Source: Tubulanus polymorphus
Taxonomy: Eukaryota > Animalia > Nemertea
Assembly (NCBI RefSeq): GCF_964204645.1
Contig: NC_134030.1
Location: forward strand, 14,384,110 to 14,448,109
Length of the DNA stretch: 64,000 nucleotides
Direction of reading: 5' to 3'
In this document: positions 32,722 to 64,000 of the stretch, piece by piece
Layout: every line of letters begins with the position of its first letter
Position numbering within the stretch: the stretch's first letter is position 1
Made by a program: the position numbers and the translations under genes
The notes under the pieces: generated by a model
Database searches by the model: none
Seen by the model: the letters and a program-made list of their open reading frames with translations, nothing else
Told to the model about the DNA's origin: nothing

Positions 32722-33050
32722 ATGGAGAGTAAACAAATACACAGTGAGAACAACAAATCATATCTAGATAGAATAAAAGATACTACAAATGTCAAATCAG
32801 TAGATTATAAATTTAAGAAGTTAACAGAATTAACAATTCATAAGAAATATTTAATTACAAATATTAATACAGTTACTACCAAATATGGAGATAAATAAGT
32901 TATCCACTTAGAATATGAAGGATTAAAAGGAAATAAATATAAATTCAGAACATATTTACCAGATAGATTTCATAGATTATCAAGTGAAGATTTTGAAGAA
33001 TTATGTTCTGGTGATTTCTATTTCATATATAAGGGTAAGAATGAAAAATT
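32722..33050 (+). pseudogene. Disrupted paralogue of the 117-aa gene at 61886 (not in the ORF track)
   Basis: MESKQIHSENNKSYLDRIKD...FRTYLPDRFHRLSSED.EELCSGDFYFIYKGKNE, with an in-frame TAA near 32896 and a truncated end. Confidence 0.9.
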
Positions 33051-33060
33051 GGATATTAAA

Positions 33061-36000: not shown

Positions 36001-37057
36001 CACATGAAGAATTATCAAATTATCAAAAAAGAATTAAACCTGAAAATCATATTCATACAGAAAAGTTAATGGTAACTCGGGAAGATAAATATAATTACGT
36101 AGTACATTATAGAATGTTAAAATTCTATTTGAATCAAGGAATGGTTCTAAAAAAGTACATAGATATATTTCATTCAGTCAATCTAAATGGTTAGAAAAAT
36201 ATATAGATTTTAAGACCAAACAGAGAACTAAAGCTTAAACTGATTTCGAGAAAGATTTCTTCAAGTTAATGAATAATGCATTCTATGGTAAGACTTGTGA
36301 AAATATTAGAAATAGAAATGATATTGAGTTAGTTAGTAATGGTAAAAGAATTAGACATTTACAAACATATCCAAAATTTATTGGTTACAGAATATTTGAT
36401 GAAAATTTTGCAGCTGTAAAAATGAAAAGAACTTCTATCGAATTTAATAAACCAATTTATGGTGGTGCTTCAGTTTTAGAAATATCAAAATTATTAATGT
36501 ATGAATTTTACTATAACGTATTACAACCTCATTTTGGAGAAAAGCATATAGAAATCTTATATTTTGATACCGACAGTTACATATTAAAGATAAAAACTAA
36601 TAATATCACAGATGATTTGAAAACATTAAAACATCATTTTGATTCCAGTAACTATCCAAAAGCTCATGAATTGTTTAACAATGATAATAAAAAGGTGCCA
36701 GGGAAGTTTAAGGATGAATTAGGAGGTGAAGAAATGATAGAGTTCATTGGAATTCGATCTAAAATGTATAGTTATAAAACCAAAACTCATGAATCAAAGA
36801 AATTGAAAGGAATTATCAAAAGCGTAGTAGAAAAGAATATTCATTTCAAAGATTACGTCAATTGTATATTCAATGAAGAAGTTAGAAAACACAAGATGAA
36901 ATGTTTAAGATCTGAGTACCACGAGATGTTTATTGAAGAAATTGAAAAGGTAAGTCTAAATCCATTTGCTTATGGCTGCAATTTAGAAGAATACTTAAAA
37001 TTTAAAAGAGAAGAAACAAAAGAAAAGGAAATAATGAACAGGATTATAACGTGTTAA
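33061..37057 (+). pseudogene. Family-B DNA polymerase, protein-primed type, with N-terminal C2H2 fingers and an endonuclease VII-like insert (frameshifted)
   Basis: VIYGDFES, RDHDHLNGKFRGAA..NCN, IFHNLSGYDAH, RFIDSYRFL, YIDANNLYGWAM, KLMNNAFYGKT, YFDTDS. Confidence 0.93.
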
Positions 37058-37086
37058 TCAAATTTTAATAAAAATATGTATCATAA

Positions 37087-37727
37087 ATGGAAAGTACACA
37101 AGCACAAATTATCAATATTACAAACAATAATAATGGTGTTATAAATATATATCAGAAGACATGTTGCAAATGTAAAATAAGTAAGCCATTTACAGATTAT
37201 TATAAACGTAAGATTGGTAAAGATGGTTTACATCATAATTGCAAAAGCTGTTATAATCAGAATAATCAACAATATTATAGAGATAATATTGAAGCACGCA
37301 ACGATAAAATCAAGCAATGGAAGGAAAATAATCCAGAACGCGTTAAAGCGTATCAAAATAGATATCATAAAGAAAGATATCAAACAGATTTTAATTTTAA
37401 AATGAAACAATGTCTAAGTAATAGATTAACAAAATTATTCAGTAAACAAGCGCATTCAGTTACACTCTCTAATTTATTGGGGTGTTCAGATGAATTTCTC
37501 AAATCATGGAATGTATATCAATTCGACGATAAAATGAATGAAAAAAACTATGGTGAATACTTTCATATTGATCATGTGTTGCCGATTTCTAAATTCAACA
37601 TGAATGATGAACACAATCAGAAGTTGATATGGAGCTGGAGAAATTTAAGGCCTCTTGAAAAGAAGGAAAATATAATTAAATCAAATAAACTAGATTTTCA
37701 GTTATATTTGGATCAGCTGTGTAAAGC
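37087..37727 (+). CDS. HNH-type (homing-like) endonuclease with N-terminal CxxC...CxxC; the ORF then reads on into a LINE fragment to 37872
   Basis: KTCCKC...CKSC; LLGCS.EFL; NYGEYFHIDHVLPISKF...WRNLRPLEKKENIIKSNK, as in HNH nucleases of large DNA viruses. Confidence 0.75.
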
Positions 37728-38136
37728 TTATTTCAGAACTGTAACTAGAAAATCTTCTGTCAAAATATCCGGTCCCCTATTATGGAATACTCTATCTGAA
37801 TCAATTCAAACTATTCAAAGCGAACCTGCCTTTAAGCGTACCTACATGAAATCATTATTCAACACTTTGTAAATTTTCATTCTATACAAACCTATGTTAA
37901 TGTGTAATATGTGAAACTTTTTTTCTTTTCTTTTCGCCTGTTAATTACTTGTGTGCATGATGTGTGAGTGTGATGAATGTTGTGTGGATGCTTCTGGGTG
38001 ATACGGCTAAGATAGACTGTTTCAGTCTCTCCGTGTAGCCCCATTATCCTGTTACATTTTTTTCGTCTAATCATACTTATTATATCGTTCAATAATGTAA
38101 CATCGTAATGAAAATAAATTTCAATTTCAATTTCAA
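37728..38136 (+). mobile_element. 5'-truncated CR1/L2-group LINE (ORF2 C-terminus and 3' UTR)
   Basis: GPLLWNTLSESI...S..AFKR motif; AATAAA followed by a (TTTCAA)n tail. Confidence 0.75.
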
Positions 38137-39213: not shown

Positions 39214-42200
39214 TCCGGCATCAGACCACAATTAGGTTAGTAGCTCGAAGATGCGTTGGGCCGGACCCCAAAAATAGTACCTAGAGTGAAGAAGAGGTCC
39301 CCCATTAATGTTGCTATAATTTCTGCAAATGGGATAGGTAACGAATTTCGGTTATATGTATGAAATCCATTGATCCTGAGGGACAGATTGATGATGAAAT
39401 AAGGGATTCCCTGGACTTTTTTTGCTTGGAGTAAGAGTACCAAACACGGTGGGGGATTCCCTTAGATATTTGGCTCGGATGTACTGGCATACCTGTACTG
39501 GGATACCCCTCCTTTCTAAAGGTTTGATTATTTCAAAAGTTAGGTTGGGAATGTGGGGCGAAAACCACTTCAATGCGTAACTAAGATGTTGGCCTATAAG
39601 CCATAAGCAGGATTTCCCATGGATTTACACGCTTATATATGAACTAAACTCTCGAATTTCTTGTTTTTACTATAGGATATAGAAGATTTTGGAATAGTGG
39701 TCTGAGCTCTGACAGCCAATACAGCCAAAATGACAAATTTTGAGGTTTTGATGAAATTTCACAAATAATTTTTATATTATACATCTTTTGCACATAGGCC
39801 CTATAAGTCGTCTTGAGGCATTCATTGAGACCTAATTTGCTGAATTTAATCAGCTTCATGGTAGGATTTGGTAATATCTTTGCTTGAAGAAGGCTTGAAT
39901 CGCAGATTTCGGTCAACTTTTAGGCATAGATCGTAAGATATTTTCTCGTAGGCTCGGTCTAGGCTCATATCCCATTTCATAAAGGCCATCCTTGCCCATG
40001 CAGAATAATCACATTAATTCAGCTTTCTTTGATTTAGTTATCTAGTTTGGCTGACTTTTTGGTGCCAGATACTGTCAGGAATTTAAGGGGTAGAGGAAAT
40101 GCATATTTTCGTTGAAACCATGGCAACCGAAAGGACATTGTCAGAGGCCAGTTGTGATATTTTTTCTAACTAGTACTGGTGACAGCTACGCTTGGTATAT
40201 AAAAGGCAAAGGCCTGTGGACGCAGTAGGGTGCATTCGAATTAGGCCTTGTGGGCAAGAAAACGCCAAATCTAAAGGTTTCAGCCAATTCGATGATGTAA
40301 ATGGCATTTTTTTCAGAAAATGCTTAAAGATTGTGTTTCTGATTTTTATCCATAGCCATATATTTATATCCATCAGTGAAAAAACCTATAAAGTATTCAG
40401 AAAATGCTGTATAATTGTTTTATTCATATTTTGAAATGAATGTTTGACTTAGATGATATTGATAGAAAACTTGGATTTTGTTTGGGTACTAGTCAGGCAT
40501 CAGACCACAATTAGGTTAGTAGCTCGAAGATGCGTAGGGCCGGACCCCAAAAATAGTACCTAGAGTGAAGAAGAGGTCCCCCATTAATGTTGCTATAATT
40601 TCTGCAAATGGGATAGGTAACGAATTTCGGTTATATGTATGAAATCCATTGATCCTGAGGGACAGATTGATGATGAAATAAGGGATTCCCTGGACTTTTT
40701 TTGCTTGGAGTAAGAGTACCAAACACGGTGGGGGATTCCCTTAGATATTTGGCTCGGATGTACTGGCATACCTGTACTGGGATACCCCTCCTTTCTAAAG
40801 GTTTGATTATTTCAAAAGTTAGGTTGGGAATGTGGGGCGAAAACCACTTCAATGCGTAACTAAGATGTTGGCCTATAAGCCATAAGCAGGATTCCCATGG
40901 ATTTACACGCTTATATATGAACTAAACTCTCGAATTTCTTGTTTTTACTATAGGATATAGAAGATTTTGGAATAGTGGTCTGAGCTCTGACAGCCAATAC
41001 AGCCAAAATGACAAATTTTGAGGTTTTGATGAAATTTCACAAATAATTTTTATATTATACATCTTTTGCACATAGGCCCTATAAGTCGTCTTGAGGCATT
41101 CATTGAGACCTAATTTGCTGAATTTAATCAGTTTCATGGTAGGATTTGGTAATATCTTTGCTTGAAGAAGGCTTGAATCGCAGATTTCGGTCAACTTTTA
41201 GGCATAGATCGTAAGATATTTTCTCGTAGGCTCGGTCTAGGCTCATATCCCATTTCATAAAGGCCATCCTTGCCCATGCAGAATAATCACATTAATTCAG
41301 CTTTCTTTGATTTAGTTATCTAGTTTGGCTGACTTTTTGGTGCCAGATACTGTCAGGAATTTAAGGGGTAGAGGAAATGTATATTTTCGTTGAAACCATG
41401 GCAACCGAAAGGACATTGTCAGAGGCCAGTTGTGATATTTTTTCTAACTAGTACTGGTGACAGCTACGCTTGGTATATAAAAGGCAAAGGCCTGTGGACG
41501 CAGTAGGGTGCATTCGAATTAGGCCTTGTGGGCAAGAAAACGCCAAATCTAAAGGTTTCAGCCAATTCGATGATGTAAATGGCATTTTTTTCAGAAAATG
41601 CTTAAAGATTGTGTTTCTGATTTTTATCCATAGCCATATATTTATATCCATCAGTGAAAAAACCTATAAAGTATTCAGAAAATGCTGTATAATTGTTTTA
41701 TTCATATTTTGAAATGAATGTTTGACTTAGATGATATTGATAGAAAACTTGGATTTTGTTTGGGTACTAGTCAGGCATCAGACCACAATTAGGTTAGTAG
41801 CTCGAAGATGCGTAGGGCCGGACCCCAAAAATAGTACCTAGAGTGAAGAAGAGGTCCCCCATAAATGTTGCCATAATTTCTGCAAATGGGATAGGTAACG
41901 AATTTCGGTTATATGTATGAAATCCATTGATCCTGAGAGACAGATTGATGATGAAATAAGGGATTCCCTGGACTTTTTTTGCTTGGAGTAAGAGTACCAA
42001 ACACGGTGGGGGATTCCCTTAGATATTTGGCTCGGATGTACTGGCATACCTGTACTGGGATACCCCTCCTTTCTAAAGGTTTGATTATTTCAAAAGTTAG
42101 GTTTGGAATGTGGGGCGAAAACCACTTCAATGCGTAGCTAAGATGCTGGCCTATGAGCCATAAGCAGGATTTCCCCTGAATTTACGCGCTTATATATGAA

Positions 42201-42269
42201 CTAAACTCTCGAATTTCTTGTTTTTACTATAGGATATAGAAGATTATGGAATAGTGGTCTGAGCTCTGA
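39214..42269 (+). repeat. Head-to-tail tandem array of a ~1279-bp unit (2.4 copies), possibly a non-autonomous Helitron concatemer
   Basis: Units at 39214-40492, 40493-41770 and 41771-42269; junctions read ...GTACTAG|TCAGGCATC; duplicated ORFs in the track confirm near identity. Confidence 0.9.
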
Positions 42270-42672
42270 TTCCGAGTCGAACATAATTCTAGTAGCCACC
42301 CGTGACTCAACGACCTTGATTTAAACTTGATCAATTCAAAATTTATTTATTGACGCTTCTGGTTACATGAACAGATCAGCAATATACTTAAACAAAATAA
42401 CCGGAATAACAAGAAATCAATAATATAAAAGTGGTAACAAACAAATGCCCGTAATCCTGTCGGACTCGCGAACGCCGGACTAGTAAACTTGCCTTTGCAC
42501 TTTTAACAAAAACTGTGTGGAAAAGTGATTAAACAAGATAAATATAGCTGCAAAGCAGCGTTAACGGGTTTCTGCCTTGCTGGTTTAAATTTCGCACTGA
42601 GATGCGCACAAAGATTTCACCAAGATAATTCTTATCAGTTCATTACATGCGACTATTTTGAAGGAGCGCGAC

Positions 42673-43050
42673 GGGTGTTACTAAAACTATGCACTACTAA
42701 AACGAAGACCGAAGACCTATGCACTTTGCGAGACTAAAACTATGCACTACTAAAACGAAGACCGAAGACCTATGCACTTTGCGAGACTAAAACTATGCAT
42801 GACTAAAACGAAGACCGAAGACCTATGCACTTTGCGAGACTAAACCTATGCATGACTAAAACGAAGACCTATGCACTCATTAGAAATCATAACTAGGGGC
42901 GCTATCTGTATATTCAACCACCTCTGTCGATGAGTATAGGCAATAGGGACCTACTCGATATAAACATACATAAGGAAACGTAAAATGTTCGTTTATTTTT
43001 CTCGGGTGCATAGGTCTTCGTTTTAGTAGTGCATAGTTTTAGTAACACCC
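42673..43050. mobile_element. MITE with a TIR-derived 53-bp internal tandem array
   Basis: 38-bp TIR GGGTGTTACTAAAACTATGCACTACTAAAACGAAGACC and its reverse complement ending at 43050; 53-bp unit ~3.7 times; a further partial unit at 43062-43102. Confidence 0.85.
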
Positions 43051-45317
43051 ACACACGCAAAACTAAAACTATACATGACTAAAACGAAGACCTATGCACT
43101 TTTACAAAACTTACTTCAAACATGGAATTATTCACGCAACCACTTCGGGGAAGCTCCAGTTACGACTATGCCAACAAATGTACGTATTTACGACGAATGA
43201 AACGAAGTTTTCATCTATAAATGTGCGATTTTTATTATATTCGATTTGCTGCGTTGTCGTTGCTAATACATTATTTTCATCAATACACGTTTACGATTCT
43301 ATTTTACGAAGCAAAGTTAGCCTATATATTATAAGGAACAGATTAAGGGATTTATTTTCGATTTCGTTTCACAATTCACGTGGTCAGAATGGTCCCTACA
43401 AATTCTCGTTTACTATGCTGTTCTGAACTTATATTATATATTTGTCGAACACATTACGAGGCCGTTGCTTCAGAGAATAATGGCAATTTAACGTAACGAA
43501 ATATCCATTATGGAAGGCCGAACGTAGAGTTTACTATGGTGGCTACAAAGTGTCAGTCTGGACAACAATAGCATTTGGTCCGGATATACGGAAAAGAATA
43601 TATAACCGATCTATGAATGAATTATCATGGAAATATGTTCCAAGGGTTATTGCGCAACGCTCCGTCACTATTATAACTATCCCGGTCATAATTCAGTACG
43701 GTATGCCCTACCGTAATAAATCAAAAACAAAATACTACCTGGTACTCGAAAATTCCTAAATGCATCTTTCACATACTTTGGAAAATATTCAACTGAAATA
43801 ATTTGAAAGTTTCCTCAATTTATGTTGATAACTGCTACTGCCTACCGGCAAATGTACTATATGCCTGACCATGAGCCAAAATGTCTTTCTAGAATACACG
43901 TTCAGTACAGCAATAAAATTGGTCAGACAATTGAAGTAACATATTCCCCCAAAGCATGTTTAATCACGTTATTTACAGTATTTTGACTCAACTATTTCGT
44001 TTACCGGTACGAATACGCTAGAAATATTCGTTACGGTATAACGGTACTAACCGTAGAGCTTGCCGACTAACGCCAGTTCTACTGCAATTCCTCTGATTAC
44101 GGAGCCGGATCTAGGTCGAGGTCCAGGCAGTTATCCAGAAAAATCTAGACGAGGGGATTACTAAAATTGAAAAATGTCAGTCGAAATCAGTTTCAGTTGT
44201 TCTACAATTAGGCGTTATTGTAACTGTTTTAATTCGGGTACCGGTAGAGATTTTTAACTTTGGTCTTTCTTCAATCCCGAAGTCGGAAAATTCCAAGGTC
44301 CCGATTTTTTCAGTTCGTTTTCCTATCAAAATCTGTCTCAATTCGGATTCTAGAAATCGGAAATTCGGCTAAGTGGGCTAGAATATATGTCCCGAACGTT
44401 TCAAAGCAATGCATTTTTTCCATCTCTAAGTCAGTTCTTTTTAAAAAGATCATCGTTACTGGCGCGCGGTGTCTATGGTAGATTGATTTTTCTGTCGACG
44501 GACAGTTAAGCACATGTTTACAATATTAGTCGGCTATAAATTCTTCATTTTTACAGATTGAAACTCAACTTAAATCTCACCTGTTTACATCAGCCCCGTC
44601 GTTATATTGAAAGAAGTTAAACGTTTTCAGAAGAACCAGAGCGATACAAAAGCGAGGTAAATTTTGATAAGGGATTGAATTATGGAATTTCGGTTAAACA
44701 TGCCAATAGGCCCTACAACAATTACATATCGGTATAGGAAATCTAAGAAAACGAAGATCATAGCTGTAAAACGAATTAAATCGATAGATGGGCACCTTCT
44801 TTTTGAAGGATATCCAAAAGAAGAAAAAGAAGGTAATGTCATCGGTGCAGTAGACATTCTAAATTAAATTGGTATATACTAAACCCATGTAAGTCATTTA
44901 TGCCATTGTATAATTATTTACATTTTCTAGACGGAAACAAATTGGTCGTTCTGACGAAGATCACAAACCTGGGTCAATTGATAAAGCCAACATGGCGTAA
45001 AGGATTGTCTGTTCTTGTCAATAACAATTATGATTTAATTAAATAATATAATGTTCAATCATGTTTTATTCAATCATTTATATTCAAGTTAATTTGATAG
45101 TGATCGAAAATCAATGGATTTCTATCAGTGATTTCAGGATATCATGTTTATTTGTTTTTTAAAAGGAGCATTTATTATCTATTCACGTATTCCTAAATCT
45201 ATAACATCTAACAAAATGCCTTATGCGCTTACAAAGATTACACCTAGATATCAATGCATGACACTTGTGTGAATAGACCTGATCACTTACCACACCGTTC
45301 ACATTTATCATGGAAGT

Positions 45318-49478: not shown

Positions 49479-51087
49479 ATGGCGGACATGGAAAGTTGTG
49501 CGCGGTAAGTTCACTAAAATAATCGTATTATTCTATACTTTCGCGTGATATTCAATTGCTAGATCTGTTGAGATGTATAATACATATATCAGTGTATTGA
49601 TAATTAATTAGCAAAACAATGTATGCAGTGCTTCGTCCTACTTTCTCCTTCATTCTTCACTTGGCCATCACGTCACCACACACACATTACACAATCACAT
49701 GCGTGCGTGGTGGTAGGCCTACGTAAACACGCTTCATCACATCTGATGTACAAATGAGCAGTCACTTGTCTTTTCGTAAACAGGTTACGTTCGTAAAAAA
49801 TGGCTTTATTATATTTGTAGGCAGGAAAATGGTTGGTGGAGACCATTATCATTAGATTTTGATGATCGAATTGTCAGTCTTGTGGTTGATTTACCAACAT
49901 GGAGCAAAGTTCAAGATAATGGTAAGTGTCAACAATTCAACCCTGGCCAAATCAATGTCAAACATTTGTATAAACATTAGGTAGGGACAGTGGATTGATT
50001 TTTTTAAAGAAATTTGTCGACCATCAATTTTGTTTTTAAGCTTATACATGTATTTGCATTTAGATACAGAGACCATCGAAGAATTGAAGAAAACGGTAGT
50101 GGAATCAGAGAGAGATGCTCAATGTGAACTTGGTAAGTCTGATTTTCTTTGAGGGAGGGATGTGATATACTTTTTGGAATTCCAATTCTCAATTTTTTTA
50201 ATCTTTATGTGGGATGGGAAATAACAAATTTTCTTAATTCTTGGTATAGAAAAATTATTGTTATTTTTCAATTCTACCAGCTAGTCTTGCTCTATATGTA
50301 AATCTAGTTAACTTACTCTCATCATTCCCAAAGTAAACACCGATCACCCAGCTACATTGTTCAAAGTCTTACTAGATTTTAATTTCTAAAATTGCTTCTC
50401 TCTTCAGTTGCATCTGTTGCAACAGAAGCTCCACCAAGATCAGAAAACACTGAGTCATCAGAAACGGAATCAGAAATATCTGCCATTGGTGTTACATATA
50501 ATACTGCAATGCCAAGGGAGGCAGTTATTCATATCATACAGCTGCACAAAAAACATGCCAGGGAATTTTCGGATCCGCGAATCAAGAAAAGGACTGTTTG
50601 GGAAAAGCTCTCCAAGGAATTGCAGAAACTTGGATATTCTTTTTCATGGCAGCAGATAAAAACCAAATGGAATAATGTAACTCTCAGATACAGAAAAACC
50701 AAGACCGAAAATGATAAAACAGGATATTCTCCTAAAACTTGCCCATATTATGATGAGTTGGATGAATATTTATCTGATAAGCCAAATGTTTCAGCTGAAA
50801 TTGTTATTTCATCTCACGGTAGTGGCCACAATAGTGCAAATATCTGCTCAAGTGAGGATGATGTTACTGATGTTAATCGAGGTGAGGATACCCAGCCTAC
50901 CAAAAGGCAGAGGCTAAAACCTCGAAAGCAAAAAGTTTTTGAACTCATTCAAAAGCAGGATGAACAAAATAAACTTAGACACGATGAGCTAGTTAAAATT
51001 GAAAAGGAACGCCTTGACATTGAAAAGGCCAAATTGGAGGTATTCAAAAAATCCTGGATAAATTTTGATTTAAGCAGTCAGGAGTAA
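49479..51087 (+). CDS. Harbinger Myb/SANT (trihelix) DNA-binding protein, 4 exons (49479-49504, 49821-49921, 50064-50132, 50408-51087)
   Basis: GT-AG introns join in frame; KRTVWEKLSKEL..LGY....QIKTKWNNV..RYRK....N..TG......CPYYDELD; C-terminal coiled coil. Confidence 0.85.
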
Positions 51088-51504
51088 AATAATTTTCATG
51101 TTTACTGCCGGGTACCTATTCTGTGGGGAGTATATTTAAACGAGAGGGTTTTATATACGTATATATAAAATTTAAACCTCAATATGAGGTTCAGTTTTTT
51201 TTTACATTTTTTATCTGTAGGCAAATGTCGCCTGTAAGATTTTGAATTTTTGTTGTTACAGTTTTTATCTGGTGGCCAAGTCAAATATCGCCTGTAAGAT
51301 TTTATATTTTGGTAATTTTTATACTGTTCAGTTATGAAAATAAACAATTATAATTTGAGATCTGGATTAATTATCAAGATGTCCTGAATTATTTCTCTTT
51401 TCTCTAATAGTCTGAGGCTTTGTTCTCCAATCCAATCAATGTAAAAGTCGAAGAAACAAAGAATAAATTGATACACAATGAAACATTTATTCTTCAACGA
51501 TAAG

Positions 51505-52432
51505 TTACATGGACAAAATAATGCTCAGGGCATTACGCTTCTGTTCTGCAGTGGGTTGTATTTCAGCTACATTGTCTATTTGAGGAACAGTTTCTTCAGC
51601 AAGTCCTTCCTCCAAGTAATCGATAAAATCGTCTTCGCTTGTCAGACAAATATTGTGCAGAACGAATACACTAGAAATGAAGGAAACGATTCGCTTCATG
51701 TCAATCATGTCTATATACTTCAACCTACGAAAGCGTCCCTTCGAAACACCAAAAGCATGTTCTATTGGCATTCTTGTAGAACTTTGCTTATAATTGTAAT
51801 CCTTTTTAGCACGGCTTAGGTTGCCCGTGTCTTTATATAGTACCATGATGAAATCTGTTAACGGGTAGGCAGAGTCTCCAAGAATATGACTATTGTTGGG
51901 AAACATTTGTAATCGAGTTGTCGGATTTTCAACCGAATCGCAGAACGGACTGTTACTATATACCCTGGCATCATGCGAGGAACCTGGCCAACCAACGAAT
52001 ATTTCAGTGAAATATAGTTCATGGTCACAAATAGCCATAACAGTTAATTGAGTGAAATTTCTTGCGATTGATATACGTTTCTGGGTTTTTAATCGGAGCG
52101 CGTATAGGTATATGTGTTCCATCGATTGCTCCCAAAACTTTAGGAAACCCTTTCATTCGCGAAAAACCATCCATCACCTCCTGTACTCGACGTCCTGTTG
52201 GCCATTTTACGAATGTAGACATCAGGTGGTTATTAATAAACGACGAGATGGATCCTGAAAAAATGAAATATTTCAAACAACTTATGTGACAAAGATTATG
52301 TGGGTTAAAGACTTCTGATATTGTGCAGTAGGCCTACTTACCGATTATTTCGAAAACTGTGGACTCTGCAACGTTAAAGATATCAGCAATTCGTATTATT
52401 GGTGTTGGTGTGGCAGCATAATAAATGGCTAT
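51505..52432 (-). pseudogene. Harbinger (HARBI1-like) DDE transposase, frameshifted and 5'-truncated
   Basis: IADIFNVAESTV exon; GFPKVLGAIDGTHIPI, YINRKKFHS, GWPGSSHDARV, LGDSAYPL, SSTRMPIEHAFG..KGRFRRL, LHNIC. Confidence 0.92.
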
Positions 52433-54153: not shown

Positions 54154-55066
54154 CTACTCGGTAGTTTCTATCGGACACAATTTTGCAATTGGTCTAACCA
54201 ATGTTGTTTTACCAACTTGTAACTTAACTACTCGAACGTGCCCGTCTTTCCCTGGAAAGATCTCTAACACGCGCCCTAAAGGCCATTTACCCCTTGGTGT
54301 ATCTGACGATATTACTAAAACGACATCCCCGACTTTAAAATCTCGTTTAGTATCTGTCCATTTTTTGCGCGAATTCAACTGTGGTAACCATTCTCTCATC
54401 CATCTTTGCCAAAAATGTTTCATAAGTTCTTGGACACGTCGCCATCTTCTTCGTGGACTGAAATCCGTTTCATCTACAGTATCTGGCGCGAACTCACCTC
54501 CCATTTGACCGAACAAGAAATGATTTGGTGTCAACGGAACGTCATCATCTGGGTTAGCCGACTGGTATGTTAACGGCCTGGAGTTAATCAGTGCTTCAGC
54601 TCCAGTAAATGCCGACAATAACTCTTCATCGTTTACGTCTGCGTTCCCCAGTATAGCGTATATAGCTCGTTTCGCTGACTTGATCATCGTCTCGTGTACT
54701 CCTCCAAAATGGGGTGCGAGTGGCGGATTGAAGTACCATTTCACACCTTGGTTTGCCGTTGTACGTCTCATATTTTCTTTGTCTAAAAGTTTCACCAATT
54801 CTTTGAGTTCGTTGTTGGCTCCAACAAAATTCGTTCCGTTGTCTGAGTTCATCTCTATTGGCAGCCCTCGTCGATTAACCATTCGGTAGAATGCATTCAA
54901 AAACGCATCTGTGTCCAAACCGAATGCGAGTTCTAAATGGACTGCTCTCTTGACAAACATGTGAAAAGACACAAGTAACGCTTTTCTCTGCTCTTTCCGC
55001 GACCCTGTTTTGTGATGAATGGTCCACCAAAATCCACTGCTGTTCTTGCGAATGCGCGTATAGGCA
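54154..55066 (-). pseudogene. BEL/Pao element 3 integrase core and C-terminus
   Basis: [74 protein letters not shown]. Confidence 0.93.
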
Positions 55067-55150: not shown

Positions 55151-57287
55151 TGTTTCTTTATGACACGATTTAAGCTGTTTGTGTCGACCGACAATTCTGT
55201 AATTTCACACAGGTATTCTCTACTTGATGTAGATGGTGCAGCTTGGTTTATATTTGATTCCGATGGTTATAAGTGCTCTAATTTGGTTAAAAGATAATTA
55301 ACGTTACTCGCTAGTTCAAGCCGCTGTATAGCGCGTTGCTACGACGACGCTCGATCAACATACTGGTACTCGCTGTGTAATACTGAACACGTATATACCT
55401 GTAGATATTGATCGTACTAGCACCGGTTTTAGATAGCGCGCGCGCTGATCGGTCTTAACACTTCTCGGAACTGCTGTGCTAAATGCTGAGAGGCCGAATC
55501 TATGCGCAATCATTTATTGGGCTCGTCACATTTGATAGTGAATGGATAAATAACCGGTGTCAATGCCGGTCGCTACTCCCCATCAGTATAACTCATCAGT
55601 ATAAAAAATAATTCTTTTGAGTTTTTTTTTTCAATCCCCGAAGTTGTTGTTACTATGTTGACCTCGCCGTTTTATAAGCTTACCGATGATTCTTCTAGTA
55701 TTTTCAGGGTCACAAGACATGACGAAGTCGCAAAGTTTTGTACAAATTTCACGAAACAAACAATTATTTAGGCGGCACCTGATCTATTGATTAATTATGA
55801 TAAATAATGTTTATTTCATTAAAAATTTGTTTTATTCAAACACTACTTTCATCGCAGATAGCGTGATCGGTAGGCCCTACTATTCTACGGTAGGACATGG
55901 ACTCTTTCATGTGGTAGGCCTATTACAAATGATACAATCCGCGTGTCCGTGAATAAGTGACACGTGGTGGGGCGGGTTGTGAGGAGCATCGAAACTAATC
56001 CGTCACAAATAATAGATAGAAAACAATACCTTAAGAGGTTAACTTTTATTAACATCATTACCAAATCAAAACCTGCACATCCTATCATAAATAGAAATTC
56101 TAAGAATTTATTTCAAAGAATAATAAATTACGTCTAAATATTGGGATTCGAACTCGTAGCATCGATTCAGGTGCCTTTCCCAAAGCGGGTATCCCGCGGG
56201 GAAAACCCATTACTATTTATATCGAGAATCGCCTTTTTGCGACAGCGCCACGGCGCTGGAGCATATTAAGTTGATCGAACCACCTGGTGTCTTCCAATAC
56301 CACCACCTAGTGGGCTCAAATTCAAGTTCAAATATACTTTATTGATACTCATCAAATACTTAATTATACTTAATTGTTACTTTATTCAATACTTTATTGT
56401 TCCCAGTACTGCAAATACATCGGATTTCCGCAATTAGGTAGACAGAACACAAATAAAATCAAGAATCTTTTAGTATTCAGAAAACAACGTACATGTTATT
56501 TTTCAACTTTAATTAGCAATGAGATAATTTTTTGCGACACTCACGGATGATGCGCATTCCCTTTCTGGAAGGCTGATCGGCTCTTCCCTGAAAAATTAAT
56601 TTCTGAATCGACGTCCCGTAATGATGAATACTATTTTTAGATCCCCTGATTTCAAAATTCAAAAATATAGATTGATATGAACCTTAGGTCTACCCTTGTA
56701 ATTAACAAATTATTCGAAAGCAAAGATCTTGCATTCGAGTTTATTCATTTTTTAAGCAGTTTCTTTATTTCAAGCCGCCGAATTGATTGTCTAAATCTCT
56801 TTGCTCTTCTCGGAACTTGTATTCAATTAAATTTTCTATTCTCATTCTACAATATGTACGTGAATACTATCAACGGTAGCATTTGTTTCTTTTCATTTCG
56901 TTTTTCATAATGATTTTGTAATATTTAAATCTTCATTCTATCGCGACGGGTGCTTCCGCTTTTAAACTGTTCGTTTGTTACTTCCGATTTTGTAATCTTC
57001 ATTAATTTATTCATTCTTTATGACTTCTCTCTCTCCAAAATCGGAATAATTGTATCCTTAGATACAATAGGATCTTGATTTTTAATGACTTTGCAAAACC
57101 ACCTGTCGCAGTATATTTCCTTTTAGAAATATACCTTGTTGACAGCGAGTTCGGTGAATGAAACAGAAACAATTACACAGAAACCCATCATGGAAAGTTT
57201 CTTTCTGGTTACCCTAAGTCGTGGCAACGGTTCCATGACCTGTGTTGCAGCCTTAGCTTTTCGTTTCTTATGTGCAGCATTCACGTT

Positions 57288-57554
57288 AGTAATAGGGATA
57301 ATAGGCTTTCAAGCCAAAGGTCGAACGGTCGAGCTCGTAAAAATGAAAAACATGAAAATAATAACAATTTCTACTTGAATTACTCGCGAAACTCATTAAA
57401 ATGAAAAATAAATTCTCACACGCTCGAATTTATTTTTCATTTTTATGAGTTTCACTCCTAATTCAAGTAGAAATTGTTATTATTTTTATGTTTTTCATTT
57501 TTTACTCACCCGCCCGTTCAACCTTTAGCTTGAAAGCCTATTATCCCTATTACT
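57288..57554. repeat. 267-nt imperfect terminal palindrome (fold-back hairpin) of copy 2
   Basis: AGTAATAGGGATAATAGGCTTTCAAGC... pairs with ...GCTTGAAAGCCTATTATCCCTATTACT; loop TCACACGCTC at 57416-57425. Confidence 0.97.
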
Positions 57555-57815
57555 CTTAAAATATTTATATACATGAATAAAATATATATGAATAACATAT
57601 AAATTGATAGATTATTCAATATAAAAGTGTGAGTAAAGTGTGAGCTCTTATAGAATAGATATAAAAGTATATATTTACAACATTATTTCAATATTCATAT
57701 TTGTGTGAGTTAGATTTTTAAACATTAAAAGTGTTAGTAAAGTGTGATTGAAATAATACATAATATAAATCATTGAACTTCTAAAATCAATTTTAATAGA
57801 AAATTTAGTATTAAA

Positions 57816-60800
57816 ATGGAAGCAAATAAGTACTACTGCCCAACATGTAATATCAATATACATAAATCCCAAAAATCAAGACACAATAAAACTAAAACAC
57901 ATTTAGAGAATAAATTGAAACTAGAATATAAAGATGATATATTAGAATCTAAATTAGATGAATTAAAGAATGAAAAAGAAACATATAAATGTGATACATG
58001 TAATCAATCATTCAGTGATAAAAGATATTATAAAGAACACTTAAAATCTAAAAGTCATGTTAGAAATAAGAATAATGATATTTTAGGTGAAGATTATTTT
58101 GATAAAGATAATGATAAGAAACAGAAGACAATTAAAAGCATAAAAAATAAATTAAACAATAAAAGACCATACATGGAAGATGTAAGAAATTATATTAATT
58201 CATTAGATAATAAAAAAGATATAGAAATAACCGAAGCATTTAAAAGTGATATTGGTCCAGCAGCTATCGAGTTTAAATTTCATAAAGGAAAAACGTTAGA
58301 AGAAAATAAAAAACATTTAGAAAATATGAAAGAAATAATAAAAATAATAACTGATGTTGAATATCCTAAAATCAGTATATCAGTTAAAGTAAAGTTTATA
58401 AAATCTGAAGATAAACCAATATATAATATAAATTCTCATTCACAACATATTATATCTAAACAACATATAGATGATAAATTAGATAAATGTTATAATGAAG
58501 TAAAAACTAAAATAGAAGAGAAATATTTTGAAGGATCTGGTTTAATATTTGATGAAATAATATTTATGACTTTACATGTTTATAACACAAAATATAATAA
58601 GTTAACTAAATCGAAACCAATTGATGAAAATAATGTATCATATTATAAAGAACCAGATATTGAAGCATCGAGTTATATTAAACTACCATTTAAAACTAAT
58701 GCTGTAATAAATGTACAAAATGAAGATGATAAATGTTTTCTATGGGCTATAATAAGTTGTTTACACCCAGTTGAAGATTATAAACAACATAATTTTAGAT
58801 TAACTCATTATAAACCATTTGAAAATAATTATAAGATAGATAAGTATCCTGTTAGAATTAAAAACGTCCCAAAGATAGAAAGAGATAATAATTTAAGAAT
58901 AAATGTATTTGATTTAATCAAATTGCCAAATACAAAAGGTAACAATATAAAACATTATACATTAGAACCTTTATATCTATCAAAAGATTATGATTCAAAT
59001 GATGTTATAGATATATTATATTATGAGAATCATCATATGTGGATTAAACAAATAGATTTATTCTTTAGAACAGAAAGTGATCACCATAATAAAATGTATC
59101 TATGTAGAAAATGTTTACTTAAATTCAGAACTGAAAGTGCATTATTAAATCATAAACAATTATGTGAAAATCATGATTATTGTAAATTAGTTTTACCAAA
59201 TGAAAAAGATAAAATATTAGAATTCAAAAAATATGATTACAAAAATAAAGTACCATTTGTAATATATGGAGATTTTGAATCATTAAATAAAGAACTAACT
59301 GATCAAGATAGAAAAGAATTATATTATAAAAGAAAGAAATGAAATTCTAATGAAAATGATTTTTCAGATGAACCACCAAAAACAAATACTATTAAAAAGA
59401 TTCATCAATCAGCTGCTGCTTTCGGGTTATATATTAAATCTGATTATCCAGAACTAATTGAAAGTGAATATTATCATTATAGAAATGAAAATGTAATCAA
59501 TCATTTTGTGACTTATTAATTGAATATGAAATAAGATTTAGTAAATTATTGAATGCAAATATAGAAATTATAATGACAGAAGAAGATAAAGAAGAATTTG
59601 AGTTTGTAGATAAATGTGATTATTGTGAAAAGATATTTAATTATAAAGATAAAAAAGTAAGCGAACATGATCCTTTGAATGGAAAGTTTAGAGGCGCAGC
59701 ACATGAGAATTGTAACTTACAAGCTAAGAAAATTAACTTTGTACCAATTATATTTCACAATCTATCAGGATATGATGCACATTTATTTATCAAACAGTTA
59801 TGCCATAAAATAGAAGAAATTAATAATGAAATAGAAAGATTAAATTCAAATAGATCAAAAGGTAAAATACCAACTTATAAATTTAGAATGTTAGCTAAAA
59901 CATCTAAGAATTATATATCATTCCAATTTGGTTGCCTAAGATTTATAGATTCATATAGATTTTTAAATAGTTCATTAGATAACTTATCAAAATCATTAGT
60001 TGATGATGAATTAAAGATATTAAAACAACACTACCCAAATAATGATGATTTTCAATTAATGAGATATAAAGGCGCAATTCCATATTCATTTTATAAGGAT
60101 CATAATGATTTCAATATAACTGAATTATTGAAAGAACAATTCTATGATGAATTAAAAAATGAATATGTTAAAGATGAAGTATATAATAGAACATTGAATA
60201 TTTGGAATCATTTTAGAATGAAAAATCATGGGCAATTAGTAGATTTATATTTTAAATCAGATGTATTATTATTAACCGATATATTCGAAAGGTTTAGAGA
60301 TGTAAACCTAAAATATTTTAATATTGATCCATGTCATTGTTATTCATCACCAGGATTAACATGGGATTGTGGATTAAATTTTACAGATATAAAAATGGAT
60401 TTGTTAACAAATATAGGTCAATTATTATTATTTGAAAAATCTATAAGAGGAGGAGTTTCAGGTGTATTAGGTGATAGATATTTCAATGTAAATGATAACC
60501 CTGGATATAAGTTATTATATATAGATGCAAATAATTTGTATGGTTGGGCAATGATGGAACCACAACCTTATGGAGTATTTGAATTAACTGAAGTTTCACA
60601 ACATGAAAATAATGATAAATTTGATTGGAAGAAAAGAATCCTAGATATTGCAGATGATTCAGATACTGGTTACTTCTTTGTTGTAGATTTAGAATATCCT
60701 GAACATATTAAATTTAAATCTAGAAATCTAGCTTACTGTCCAGAACATAAAACTGTAACACATGAAGAATTATCAAATTACCAAAAAAGAATTAAACCTG

Positions 60801-61871
60801 AAAATCATATTCATACAGAAAAGTTAATGGTAACTCAAGAAGATAAATATAATTATGTAGTACATTATAGAATGTTAAATTTTTATTTGAATCAAGGAAT
60901 GGTTCTAAAAAAAGTACATAGATATATTTCATTTAGTCAATCTAGGTGGTTAGAAAAATATATAGATTTTAACACCAAACAGAGAACTGAAGCTAAAACT
61001 GATTTCGAAAAAGATTTCTTCAAGTTAATGAATAATGCATTCTATGGTAAGACTTGTGAAAATATTAGAAATAGAAATGATATTGAGTTCGTTAGTAATG
61101 GTAAAACGATAAGGCATTTACAATCATATCCTAAGTTCATTGGTAACAGAATATTTGATGAAAATTTAGCCGCAGTTAAAATGAGAAGAACATCAATGAA
61201 ATTTTAAACCAATCTATGTTGGCGCTTCAGTTCTAGAATTATCAAAATTACTAATATATGAATTCTATTATAATGTATTACAACCACTTTTTGGAGAAAA
61301 ACATATAGAAATATTATATTTTGATACCGACAGTTACATATTAAAGATAAAAACTGATAACATAACTGATGATTTAAAAACATTAAAACATCATTTTGAT
61401 TTCAGTAATTATCCTAAAGATCATGAATTTTTTAGCAATGATAATAAAAATGTTCCAGGGAAGTTTAAGGATGAATTAGGTGGTGAAGAAATGATAGAGT
61501 TCATAGGTATTAGATCTAAAATGTATTCATATAAAACTAAAGAACATGAAGCTAAAAAGTTAAAAGGAATAACCAAAAATGTAGTAGAAAAGAATATTCA
61601 TTTCAAAGGTTACATCAATTGTATATTCAATGAAGAAGTTAGAAAACATAAGATGAGATGTTTAAGATCTGAAGATCATGAAATGTTTATTGAAGAAATT
61701 GAAAAGATAAGTCTAAACCCATTTGATGATAAAAGATATATTTTAGATGATGGAATTCATACAGTTGCTTATGGATGTAATTTAGATGAATACTTAAAAT
61801 TTAAAAGAGAAGAAACAAAAGAGAACGAGATAATGAAAAGAATTCTAACGTGTAAATCAAATTTTAATTAA
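57816..61871 (+). pseudogene. Family-B DNA polymerase, protein-primed type, with zinc fingers and an endonuclease VII-like domain; one stop (59340) and frameshifts near 59.5 and 61.2 kb
   Basis: CPTC..H...H and CDTC..H...H fingers; DDKCFLWAI; VIYGDFES; CDYC...EHDPLNGKFRGAAHENCN; FHNLSGYDAH; SDVLLL; YIDANNLYGWAM; KLMNNAFYGKT; YFDTDS; PFDDKRY. Confidence 0.95.
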
Positions 61872-61885
61872 AATATGTTATTAAA

Positions 61886-62239
61886 ATGGAGAGTAAACAA
61901 GCGCACAGTGAGAACAACAAATTATTTCTAGATAGAATAAAAGATATAACAAATGTAAAATCTGTAGATTATAAATTCAAAAAGTTAACAGAATTAACAA
62001 TCCATAAGAAATATCTAATTACAGATATGGTTACAGTTACTAATAATTATGGAGATAAATTAGTTATACACTTAGAATATGAAGGATTAAAAGGAAATAC
62101 ATATAAATTCAGAACATATTTACCGGATAGATTTCATAGATTATCAAGTGAAGACTTAGAAGAATTATGTTCTGGAGATTTCTATTTCGTATACAAAGGT
62201 AAGAATGAAAATGGGCACCATGAAATAGATTTCGAATAA
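61886..62239 (+). CDS. 117-aa protein, possible OB-fold ssDNA-binding or replication accessory factor
   Basis: Intact ORF directly after the polymerase; beta-rich pattern FKKLTEL...Y.I...YGDKLVI.L...YLPDRF; function is inference. Confidence 0.6.
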   Translation: MESKQAHSENNKLFLDRIKDITNVKSVDYKFKKLTELTIHKKYLITDMVTVTNNYGDKLVIHLEYEGLKGNTYKFRTYLPDRFHRLSSEDLEELCSGDFYFVYKGKNENGHHEIDFE

Positions 62240-62256
62240 GAAAATATGTAAAATAA

Positions 62257-63017
62257 ATGGTAGAATTAAAAGAATACAGAATATTTGTTGATTCTAGAAG
62301 ACTTACAGATTATAAATCACATAATTTACTAGTACAATTAGATAGAGAATTCAAGAATTGTGTAGATTTAAAATTAGTTAATATAAGTTTATGCAATTCT
62401 TTTTATAATATATCGAATAAAACTGTTGAACATAGAGCCTTTTTAATTTTTGATAAAAGTAAAAATGAATGGTCCTCTATATTCTTAAAACCGGGGTTAT
62501 ATAATTTAGATACATTAGTACAAGAAATTAATAGAAAAGCCTGGCACAAATTAGGTAGTAGTTCTGGGTTTGGTATTAGATTTTTAAAAAGTGAGAGTTC
62601 TGATAGAATAAAGGTAAGGTTGTCTAATAGTGAAAAACATAAATTTATGGTAAAAAGCCTATAGCTAAACTGTTAGGAATTCTTCCAGATAGATCTTTTA
62701 CAAATATTGACGCTACTACACCAAACTTAATACCTTACACACATTTTTATATTTATTGCAGTTTAATCGATCCTACAAAAACATTCGAAGCAACTAAAGA
62801 TATAACTTGTAATTCTGGTTTACTAAACATTTTACAATTGAAGAATGTTAAAGAATTTGGAACGCAAATAAATTATAATTTAACAGAATGTGATTTCAAA
62901 CCATGCATTCCTCATTTTAATAATTTTAGATTAGAAATTAGAAATCATAATGGATACTTAATTGATTTAAATAATTTCCCTGTAATTTATGAATTAGTTA
63001 TAAGATGTAGAGAGTAA
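62257..63017 (+). pseudogene. Minor capsid (penton, single jelly-roll)-like protein, one frameshift near 62655
   Basis: IFVDSR..., LVNISLCNSFYNI, PGLYN, then in a shifted frame AKLLG, FYIYCSLID, RLEIRNHNGYLIDLNNFPVIYELVI, matching the Polinton penton pattern. Confidence 0.7.
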
Positions 63018-63034
63018 TTTTTTTCACTATATAA

Positions 63035-63373
63035 ATGAATATAACTGTTGGACCGAGTATATGTTTTGGGTTTGATTTTAAACATGGTAAAGAAATAAGA
63101 ATTAAACTAAATGATGTAATTACTGATATAAAAAGTAAATCATTTAACAATGCACCAATGATTGATAAAGAAAATTATAATATAGAAAAAGTAATTGATT
63201 TAATTAAAACGCCTTTAGAATATTATGAATTAAATGAAGATGGAATTATTGATGATATTAAAAACATATTAACGAAAATATATGATAATCATGAAAGTAG
63301 TAATGAAATAAATGTTGAATTAATCATAAATAAGTTAACTAAATATTTTGATGATAGTAATTTTTTTGAGTGA
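63035..63373 (+). CDS. Hypothetical 112-aa element protein
   Basis: TATAAATG start, co-oriented, same composition as neighbouring genes. Confidence 0.6.
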   Translation: MNITVGPSICFGFDFKHGKEIRIKLNDVITDIKSKSFNNAPMIDKENYNIEKVIDLIKTPLEYYELNEDGIIDDIKNILTKIYDNHESSNEINVELIINKLTKYFDDSNFFE

Positions 63374-63587
63374 TAATAAGTGGATAATAACTGGATTATA
63401 TAATGGAGCATTACTATCAGTTGGAACTGTTGGTTATTCAATGGTATTAAAAAAAGTATTCAAAATGGGAAGTGTTAATGTTGATAGATTTGATATAAAT
63501 GATATTTTAAAATTAACATTAGCAGTTACTTTATCTAATTTAACTATTGATTATTTGGAAAAACAAAAATATATTCCTCCCATATAA
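63348..63587 (+). CDS. Small protein with two hydrophobic helices (putative membrane or virion protein)
   Basis: GLYNGALLSVGTVGYSMVL and ILKLTLAVTLSNLTIDYL segments; start codon uncertain. Confidence 0.6.
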   Translation: MMIVIFLSDNKWIITGLYNGALLSVGTVGYSMVLKKVFKMGSVNVDRFDINDILKLTLAVTLSNLTIDYLEKQKYIPPI

Positions 63588-63611
63588 ATGCGTAATTATT
63601 TTACTAAATAA

Positions 63612-64000
63612 ATGGCTTCTGCAGTTATAACTATAATAGAATCGGCAATTGTTAACGCTTTGGCATTTACTGGTGGTGGATATTTATTTAAACATATTGA
63701 TGAAAATAGTTCATTAGGAGAACAAAGAAGACATAACTTAGCATTAGAGAAATACAATAAAGCTGCAGAAGAATATAGTGAAAAGAGGCAAAACTATATG
63801 GATTATATTAACAAGGAATTATATGATCAGAAGATTTCACATAGAGATTTTCAATTAGTTGATGATGCAATGAGTTTATATAACGCGGTAACCAATAAAG
63901 AAAAATTACATCTATACAAACCTAAATTATCAGATTATTATACCCCAAGTAAAGAACAACAGAAATATGAAATAATTTGGATTTTAGGTGGAACAGTTAT
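63612..64000 (+). CDS. Putative membrane-anchored coiled-coil protein, runs off the window (not in the ORF track)
   Basis: MASAVITIIESAIVNALAFTGGGYLF...EQRRHNLALEKYNKAAEEY...PKLSDYYTPSKEQQKYEIIWILGGTV; open to the window end. Confidence 0.75.
   Translation, partial: MASAVITIIESAIVNALAFTGGGYLFKHIDENSSLGEQRRHNLALEKYNKAAEEYSEKRQNYMDYINKELYDQKISHRDFQLVDDAMSLYNAVTNKEKLHLYKPKLSDYYTPSKEQQKYEIIWILGGTV

Follow-up and report, generated by a model that had tools for sequence, protein, structure and literature searches.

The element and its genes

The right end of the window (the whole stretch of 64,000 nucleotides that was analysed) holds the left part of a decayed copy of a many-copy, virus-like Polinton (Maverick) with a long fold-back end. 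The element begins with an imperfect palindrome, AGT...ACT, at 57288 to 57554, followed by a polymerase gene at 57816 to 61871 on the plus strand, where all the other genes described here also lie. The gene matches PF03175 (E 2e-15), and its intact natural homologues encode 1319 to 1365 aa at 61 to 70% identity. This copy is broken by a stop at 59340 to 59342 and by frame breaks near 59.50 and 61.20 kb, and a further frame break follows downstream near 62.65 kb. The domain order is ZnF-ZnF-terminal protein-vOTU-ZnF-exonuclease-polymerase, with an EndoVII-like insert between ExoI and ExoII. An earlier note on this DNA had described a ZnF-EndoVII-PolB gene; such a gene is indeed present, but the terminal protein and the vOTU protease had been missed and the gene is not intact.

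The same note had proposed to look for a terminal-protein domain by structure prediction, and in fact the N-terminus is predicted to fold as a Polinton terminal protein plus vOTU. The terminal-protein domain (D1, LF/PAD fold; 58203 to 58598) was assigned from its AF2 topology, conservation and VIA matches, and the vOTU domain, with Cys307 and His406 (58689 to 59060), from a VIA match and conservation. The VIA scores, which at Z 7.6 to 8.3 lie in the tool's middling range, were 8.3 for Pol eta (rmsd 2.9, 104 residues aligned) and 8.0 for Pol IV with the former, and 7.6 for a nairovirus OTU (rmsd 3.6, 99 residues aligned) with the latter. Ser241, in an EGSG loop (codon 58536 to 58538), is the predicted linking residue; in the AF2 model its loop connects helix 2 to the final strand, and the D1 terminal protein of Polintons has been described with a serine in that loop (PMC11161782). 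C307, W310 and H406 are invariant in the homologue alignment, and the vOTU domain looks active as judged from sequence and model. The terminal-protein and vOTU residues, S241 included, are invariant in 78 of 78 rows and also occur in the distant Polinton L119; the dispensable terminal-protein priming of hairpin-transfer replicons was thus not found. The Polinton hallmark, a protein-primed family B polymerase with terminal protein and vOTU, is present, disrupted in each of the two copies of the window and whole in relatives.

The EndoVII-like (bba-metal) insert lies at 59615 to 59716, between ExoI (59265) and ExoII (59753). T4 endonuclease VII (PF02945) has the active-site residues Asp40, His41 and Asn62 (PMC5481773), and intact relatives of the element share its zinc-binding bba-metal core and D-H...N pattern, whereas here the insert comprises about 40 core residues within the exonuclease domain, and nothing else in the profile is matched. 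The match spans positions 24 to 62 of 82, with 24.8 bits in an intact relative; both window copies stay below the Pfam cutoff of 23.6 bits (16.6 in the copy described above, copy A, and 21.4 in the upstream copy B), and the motif is degenerate in both. It is intact in 110 of 120 homologues, and just 1 of 110 has a glutamate at N+3, the counterpart of Glu65 in T4 endonuclease VII. The insert rejoins the exonuclease strand within about 12 residues, and a PDB sequence search with it gave chance matches only. Nuclease insertions in pPolB have already been reported (Jeong et al., bioRxiv 10.1101/2023.08.22.554363). We take the insert to be a general accessory nuclease of the polymerase clade. The dedicated telomere resolvase that the earlier note had seen in it is not borne out by a motif that is routine among homologues, matches the core of the profile only and is degenerate here.

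Downstream of the polymerase the gene order is as previously described. A 117-aa, predicted OB-fold SSB-like protein (61886 to 62239) adjoins the polymerase across the clade; the fold evidence is weak (model pLDDT, 66; best VIA Z, 5.6; many SSB/OB rows with Z of about 4), and two unrelated rows in the alignment may have lowered the quality of the model. Two penton-like (minor capsid) frames at 62257 to 63017, separated by the frame break at about 62.65 kb, are members of a single family, about 255 aa in length, that matches, with 97% probability, the open reading frame adjoining the ATPase in capsid-bearing Polintons; a PDB search gave a weak row, P1v1 (E 0.73). Two small frames follow at 63035 to 63587, the first of 112 aa and the other, which is hydrophobic, of 82 aa, with no family found for either. 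The last protein (63612 to 64000), with a hydrophobic N-terminus, is cut by the window end; most homologues have about 140 aa, and one adjoins the polymerase gene in L018. None of 25 viral-contig candidates matched it. A protein atlas search with one protein gave unnamed clusters and a DUF5901 lead. No integrase, MCP or ATPase match was found within the 64-kb window, past the end of which the element continues; a protease, a TIR and a TSD were not seen in it either, and the remainder of the virion module may be located past 64000; an rve integrase is present in the close relative L006, whose polymerase belongs to the clade of the window element with 98% support.

A second, diverged copy about 25 kb away with the same hairpin apex had also been claimed. 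This copy, copy B, in fact extends from 32572 to about 37735, 24.8 kb upstream of copy A; the two are 88.7% identical along 4.1 kb and have the same apex, but copy B is missing the outer arm. What remains is a shortened hairpin with a 24-bp stem, together with the inner arm end (32572 to 32661), followed by broken SSB-like, polymerase and HNH-like genes (32722 to 37735; truncated on the right, where the border is approximate) in the order SSB-polymerase-HNH, as in L004 and L005.

The terminal fold-back

The 267-nt fold-back reported earlier is real: 57288 to 57554 folds with a minimum free energy of -100 kcal/mol, compared with a mean of -19.5 for shuffled sequences (z, -25.6), and none of 200 shuffles was as good. 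The outer arm (57288 to 57314, plus strand), the predicted duplex origin core, pairs perfectly over 27 bp with 57528 to 57554. A tandem GG(T/G)CGA motif at 57319 to 57333 (plus strand), shared with L004 and L008 in the alignment, is likely a protein-binding site. The apex is a 10-nt loop (57416 to 57425) that resembles that of copy B and is unrelated to the loops of L004 and L119. The arms are 86.6% alike with asymmetric mismatches, among them those of 57315 to 57340 against 57503 to 57527, and raw reads independently cover both arms and the apex. It is therefore hardly credible that the fold-back arose by misassembly, to which palindromes are prone, or as a single inverted duplication; L004 and L119 also keep the structure, with another sequence. 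The TCGA and TCAA boxes seem to show a polarity between outer arms (copy A, L004 and L008) and inner arms (copy A, L004 and L005), which was not counted, with three cases each and symmetry in copy B.

The palindrome forms the left end of the element, as read from folding and read flanks. In the sheared Illumina reads and contigs, 2,011 reads left the element at this point, 1,635 before 57288 and 376 before 57287, and the flanks were loose and mutually unlike (agreement of 0.34 and 0.36, respectively). The AGT at 57287/57288, with its many unlike flanks, is a true, fixed element end, and it carries the 5'-AG...CT-3' motif of Polintons/Mavericks, for which AGT-type ends are the norm (PMC8097293). 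GC drops from 0.335 to 0.24 at this boundary. The first six bases are AGTAAT, as in L004; those of L119 are AGTAGT.

In this lineage the terminal palindrome is conserved and not a single occurrence. The same fold-back is present in L004, whose polymerase gene shows 81% DNA identity, and of the outer 27 pairs 15 are the same, 9 are changed on both sides and 3 are unpaired in L004. The fold-back is partly present in L005 and L008, the latter with the outer arm only, and L119 has one as well. Arm complementarity is kept across relatives, and loop and arm length vary. In a quick polymerase tree of 47 rows, restricted to uninterrupted frames with both anchor motifs, this architecture is found in two separate, supported branches. 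At L012, which has the EndoVII motif and noncoding upstream DNA, no strong fold-back was found in the 2 kb scanned, where the end was not identified. L087 and L102, whose TIRs are long, lack a local fold-back, in records from which the outermost bases may be missing. The sequence ahead of the polymerase reached 400 nt or more at 36 loci, and most of these have other genes there. The 47 viral-contig loci from a DNA-motif scan were rejected as chance matches because none had a pPolB match. Assemblers tend to halt inside palindromes, and L005 seems to be an example.

One orientation of the palindrome dominates among the read ends listed. Among the six raw-read rows listed for loose ends, beyond which there were 411 more, the smallest has 336 reads, against 2,011 before 57287/57288, and none is a pileup of mutually unlike flanks behind 57554. 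Provided that the rows run in order of support, inverted outer junctions thus amount to at most about 14%, a bound qualified by the length of the table beyond these six rows and by the perfect outer stem, which allows short reads to be placed on either arm. The similar amounts of flip and flop typical of hairpin-transfer replicons were therefore not seen in the rows listed. Length variants cross the axis or shorten an arm (joints at 57388 to 57453 and 57330 to 57403), likewise in copy B. Of the 15 joints listed, beyond which there were 148 more, none changes strand at the apex or at 57288/57554. The sheared Illumina reads and contigs show no position at which many molecules start or stop. The depth of the outer arm was about 1.8 to 1.9 times that at the polymerase start, which fits, if weakly, two ends per element.

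Replication of the fold-back end

Animal Polintons/Mavericks with a pfam03175 ("Alpha") pPolB (adintoviruses in Starrett et al. 2021, PMC8502044; for the anatomy of pPolB, Krupovic et al. 2024, PMC11161782) have the same TP-vOTU-Exo-Pol polymerase, an AGT-type terminus, a penton-like gene, many dispersed copies and an rve integrase (here in L006). The elements described here differ in a terminal fold-back of 130 to 270 nt with double-sided changes and in starting with AGTAAT, not AGTAGT. "Hairpin" and "palindrom" do not occur in Jeong et al. or in Barreat and Katzourakis.

On balance we favor a protein-primed Polinton in which the terminal fold-back is a local panhandle that rebuilds the duplex origin on displaced strands. 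With terminal-protein and vOTU domains in the polymerase, protein priming at the open AGT end is likely, and the fold-back is likely a local start point for copying single strands rather than a poxvirus-style hairpin tip. Given a matching TIR at the right end, the 3' end of the displaced strand would snap back onto its own inner arm, within 270 nt, and not onto the other end of the genome. The TP-polymerase would begin synthesis across from the snapped-back 3' end and displace the inner arm, and would then round the loop and copy the rest of the strand. By this route the palindrome would stay in one orientation, and such an origin role would explain why the outer 27 bp and the GG(T/G)CGA boxes are held symmetrical and the middle is free. 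Neither free forms nor replication intermediates were seen, and the panhandle role is inferred. Since the snapped-back 3' end is a ready primer, self-priming would have to be suppressed or processed. The earlier note had kept a Polinton end that is palindromic as its fallback, and with the AGT end, the TP/vOTU domains and the integrase of L006 this fits best. Its main proposal, a non-Polinton system in which hairpin priming and a resolvase replace protein priming, is not supported in view of the presence of TP and vOTU, the EndoVII-like insert being routine in the clade, the rve integrase in a relative, the integrated copies that start at AGT with the whole palindrome and the single orientation favored by the read ends listed.

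It is unlikely that the fold-back is not an origin but serves integration, excision or packaging, or that its symmetry results from arm-to-arm repair (snap-back, proofreading and recopying) with little selected role. The arms covary while length (58 to 267 nt) and apex are free to vary, in L008 the outer arm alone is present, and L012 has the EndoVII motif with no strong fold-back in the region scanned (end not identified), all of which would fit. Against this, the like architecture at the terminus in two supported branches and the shared tandem motifs suggest selection.

In our view a hybrid route is improbable. In it, the first strand would be primed by the terminal protein and the second by the displaced strand itself, folded back on its own end; the hairpin or dimer junction would be nicked or resolved by the bba-metal domain within the polymerase, after which the terminal protein would patch the end. 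A 3' end with perfect pairing could readily act as a primer, a nick at the border of arm and interior would preserve the single orientation, and D-H...N is intact in all fold-back relatives with readable genes (L004, L005 and L119). Terminal protein and folded palindromic ends coexist in the linear replicons of Streptomyces, where Tpg/Tap patch the ends (PMC4513846); these replicons are bacterial, with an internal origin, several short palindromes and unrelated proteins, so the analogy is functional only. However, the motif is found in homologues whatever their known fold-back status, the short profile match and the prompt return to the exonuclease strand speak against a resolvase, and the listed joints include no strand change at apex or termini. 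Equally doubtful is the wider idea that EndoVII-polymerase Polintons recurrently carry long terminal fold-backs as a cis-element so far overlooked, with such a hybrid cycle and with nicking or resolution by the bba-metal domain.

The ends of poxviruses and asfarviruses (hairpin telomeres) and of parvoviruses (terminal palindromes) are long, imperfect, AT-rich fold-backs, and single-orientation ends occur in some parvoviruses. Here, no sign of closed ends was seen, nor of a flip/flop mix in the rows listed, and the protein-priming domains are kept; compared with poxviruses and parvoviruses, no Rep/NS1 or A22-type resolvase gene is present in the visible part of the element. Poxvirus hairpins are described in PMC11296320 and PMC12085832. 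The poxvirus-like closed hairpin of the earlier note, self-priming and resolved by EndoVII with protein priming dispensable, would account for a long, AT-rich, imperfect fold-back with a variable apex, but it is very improbable: TP and vOTU are intact in the clade, which also has an integrase, the integrated ends are open AGT ends with the full palindrome, and one orientation dominates in the rows listed, which counts against hairpin transfer, expected to mix both. The endogenous virophages and PLVs of Halocafeteria seosinensis, which are related to Polintons, carry RVE integrases and have palindromes at the extreme ends of their integrated copies, have been proposed to prime from hairpins (bioRxiv 10.64898/2026.07.28.741278). 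Those palindromes, however, accompany mainly non-pPolB replication genes, and the illustrated one has 52 nt, whereas the palindrome here is up to five times longer, with a likely animal host and an intact terminal-protein module.

Meaning for Polinton replication

We know of no direct experiment on Polinton replication. The copying of Polintons rests on a panhandle model (summarized in bioRxiv 10.64898/2026.07.28.741278), and a paired fold-back beside an intact terminal-protein module offers a short, defined substrate for testing it. The polymerase-nuclease fusion itself is already known, and shorter terminal palindromes have been reported in protist virophages and PLVs. The fold-back may be either a local substitute for the panhandle or the sign of a hybrid protein-plus-hairpin route with a job for the EndoVII-like insert. 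If true, the hybrid cycle would unite adenovirus-type with hairpin-type replication in a single enzyme and would give the widespread insert a function.

The fold-back and the end of the element

The earlier note placed a long fold-back at the start of copy A (57288 to the window edge at 64000), and folding bears this out. The computed hairpin spans 57288-57554, with its loop at 57416-57425, and reaches -100 kcal/mol versus -19.5 ± 3.1 for shuffled sequences (z -25.6); 0 of 200 shuffles were as good. The outer 27 bp pair perfectly, the arms are 86.6% alike overall, and the GC content drops to 0.24 inside the element from 0.335 over the adjoining 1 kb on the left. X5 consists of raw whole-genome reads that come from a second study. 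In these, both arms often varied at partner positions (57298/57544, 57303/57539, 57312/57530), short reads in a perfect stem being placeable on either arm, and joints 57388-57453 and 57330-57403 in the reads are shorter hairpin variants.

In X5, the depth was ~65 immediately left of 57272 and climbed to ~3400-3660 over the outer arm, and 1635 and 376 reads exited the sequence before 57288 and 57287, respectively, into flanks with a mutual agreement of only 0.34-0.36. Position 57287/57288 is a true, multi-copy element end. Since the flank depth further left was ~180-215 (stricter likeness), compared with that on the outer arm, the number of such ends in the family is put at roughly 15-50. The depth at the polymerase start was ~1850-1920; the resulting ratio of ends to starts, ~1.8-1.9 to 1, fits two ends per element as weak evidence. 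A site where many molecules begin or end was not found in the read and contig tables.

The summed contig depth of 57204-64000 was ~100 times that of the adjacent flank in run X1 and ~10 times in runs X2 and X3, and only ~2-6 times in the raw reads of X5. The excess in X1 could be amplified or free element DNA or a library effect, summed depth being no copy number. Immediately left of the element, a segment of 902 bp (56237-57138) is missing from many reads and contigs and is therefore an insertion polymorphism. The element sits among remnants of Pao, Harbinger and hAT elements, which mark the host as a eukaryote, likely an animal. They comprise Pao/BEL retrotransposons that are broken, a pairing of Myb/SANT with DDE_4 (Harbinger-type) and a hAT fragment (1722-6215, 23175-28007, 54154-54960, 50509-52122, 9883-10440). 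A 1278-bp tandem unit, present three times, and then a 53-bp tandem array occupy 39214-43100. The 283-nt AG...CT element at 19944-20226, with its outer 18 bp perfectly paired, is unrelated to the Polinton end and is probably a MITE.

Polymerase anatomy and gene content

The polymerase gene of copy A is in pieces, with a stop at 59340-59342 and the frame broken near 59.50 and 61.20 kb. Its N-terminal part, an uninterrupted frame of 508 aa, was modeled from a 78-row alignment (mean pLDDT 79.5). As had been proposed as a check, a terminal protein (TP) domain was sought in the model and its topology was found. Residues ~136-256 run strand-strand-helix-strand-strand-helix-loop-strand, with Ser241 in an EGSG loop ahead of the last strand, which is the topology and linking-residue position of the Polinton TP domain in the accessible text of Krupovic et al. 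(PMC11161782). The best structural matches were also those named there: Y-family polymerase little-finger domains for residues 130-261 (Z 8.3, rmsd 2.9, 104 aligned; Foldseek only E ~0.01) and viral OTU proteases (vOTU) for residues 292-415 (Z 7.6). Taken singly, each Z score is middling; domain order and identity agree with the published Polinton anatomy. The best viral match was an adintovirus protein (E 1e-16). S241, C307, W310 and H406 are invariant in 78/78 rows, and of 120 homologues, simple patterns recovered the TP loop in 99 and the cysteine of vOTU in 118; both are retained in L119, a pPolB locus on another contig. The model thus describes a polymerase of the ordinary protein-primed type with predicted TP and vOTU domains. 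Two relatives carry intein-like insertions, P0008 with PF14890 and PF14528 and P0010 at the DTD motif.

The earlier note saw in a pPolB-resolvase fusion the mark of a candidate new system, which was not supported. The EndoVII-like insert lies between ExoI and ExoII in 110 of the 120 best homologues (66 of the 120 bear a precomputed PF02945 label by our own count) and matches only positions 24-62 of the 82 in that profile. [quoted passage not shown] Judged from these alignments, the insert, a predicted nuclease, is routine in this polymerase group. HNH and VSR insertions in Polinton pPolBs are reported in the available part of Jeong et al. (bioRxiv 10.1101/2023.08.22.554363), and such inserts are attributed to intein invasions in that of Krupovic et al. 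(PMC11161782).

Downstream of the polymerase, copy A continues with a 117-aa ORF, then two frames resembling penton genes, and small ORFs up to the window edge. Modeling gave the 117-aa protein the form of a small beta-barrel, for which matches to OB-folds were weak; it is tentatively SSB-like. The penton-like frames form one family of ~255 aa, which aligns at 97% probability with the ATPase-adjoining ORF of the Polinton loci L087, L086 and L036; we take that ORF to be a putative penton from its position and one weak PDB row. No integrase, major capsid protein or ATPase was matched within the window, and L006, in the same clade, has an rve integrase 2 kb after its polymerase (E 6.5e-9). A second copy with the same hairpin apex had been noted: copy B (32572 to ~37735) lies 24.8 kb upstream, matches copy A at 88.7% identity along 4.1 kb and shares the apex in a 24-bp hairpin, but its outer arm is absent. 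The SSB-like gene lies 3' of the polymerase in copy A (61886-62239) and before it in copy B (32722-33047), L004 and L005. A contig of X2 joins 62239 back to 57782; therefore, both gene orders are present in the family. By its anatomy, the element works like a Polinton with a pfam03175-type polymerase and very probably is one; the polymerase anatomy of such Polintons, in the part of PMC8502044 available, is shared with the window element, known here up to 64000 only.

The fold-back in relatives

L004 shares 81% DNA identity with the window element in the polymerase gene and has 189 nt of higher-GC flank and then a 257-nt AGTAAT...ATTACT fold-back (-69.4 versus -17.9 ± 2.8 in 60 shuffles). Only 167/277 columns are identical to the window fold-back. 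Among the 27 outermost pairs, L004 keeps 15 as they are in the window, differs at both partners in 9 and leaves 3 unpaired. L005 starts within the hairpin, with the inner arm visible, and L008 has the outer arm only. The L119 polymerase is ~33% identical and groups in a different supported branch, together with capsid-bearing Polintons such as L087; 150 nt ahead of this polymerase, L119 has a 129-nt AGTAGT...ACTACT fold-back (z -10.3). When 930,006 bases were scanned for AG...CT stems, 29 matches were obtained, versus 11 after a single shuffle; as we read the matches, those in the window, L004 and L119 lie at a flank/element boundary upstream of pPolB. Lack of a fold-back at most other loci means little because their termini are not visible. 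These comparisons indicate that the terminal fold-back is conserved in relatives, with co-varying arms and with loop and length free.

L119 has 5.6 kb without long ORFs left of its element end and belongs to eighteen pPolB contigs within prokaryotic MAGs (L104-L121), probably eukaryotic or viral contaminants. In L008, a close relative, 4372-6465 is a 697-aa zinc-finger-rich gene facing pPolB. In L002, a Polinton with ATPase and integrase, a 184-nt internal, non-terminal fold-back (4657-4840) separates an HNH-like gene from the start of pPolB. At L059:2288-2464, a near-perfect 177-nt fold-back, either an insertion or an assembly artefact, lies exactly where the pPolB match stops.

In the portions of the sources available, Polinton ends have AGT motifs and 6-bp TSDs (PMC8097293), terminal palindromes occur in protist virophages and PLVs, mainly non-pPolB ones (bioRxiv 10.64898/2026.07.28.741278), Streptomyces combines TP with palindromic ends (PMC4513846), and hairpins are mentioned for giant viruses only (PMC11296320, PMC12085832). 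The literature searched, which includes few subscription papers or Repbase reports, yielded no account of long terminal fold-backs with co-varying arms in animal Polintons that encode pPolB; they may have been noted elsewhere.

Orientation of the ends and replication

Under hairpin transfer or staggered-cut resolution of snap-back dimers, as in parvoviruses and poxviruses, about one end in two would carry the asymmetric palindrome in inverted form. Inverted outer junctions would map to the inner arm, and unrelated sequence would follow 57554. Such flanks were absent from the six X5 rows listed (the smallest with 336 reads), versus 2011 reads before 57287/8; thus, inverted junctions amount to at most ~14% if rows are ranked by support. 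No strand change at the apex or palindrome borders occurred among the 15 joints listed. These orientation data disfavour hairpin transfer. Of the hairpin-end model in the earlier note, the terminal palindrome stands as real and conserved; the new resolvase system is not supported, given the intact TP/vOTU, the routine insert, the integrase in the clade and the orientation bound.

The observations are a fixed AGT end, co-varying arms, a lack of constraint on loop and length, TP and vOTU domains that are intact, and an integrase in the clade. Replication would be protein primed, by strand displacement. The standard model, in the part of bioRxiv 10.64898/2026.07.28.741278 available, has the displaced strand pair two distant TIRs to remake the origin. 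A terminal fold-back would let the 3' end remake the same duplex within 270 nt, and TP-primed initiation at the snapped-back end would run round the loop with orientation kept. A hybrid route, with the snapped-back end extended directly and the nuclease insert used, is unlikely, yet keeps some weight because that same end could be extended directly. That the element is a protein-primed Polinton we consider highly likely and, given that, an origin role of the fold-back is reasonably probable; taken together, a protein-primed Polinton whose fold-back may serve as a local origin is somewhat better than an even bet.
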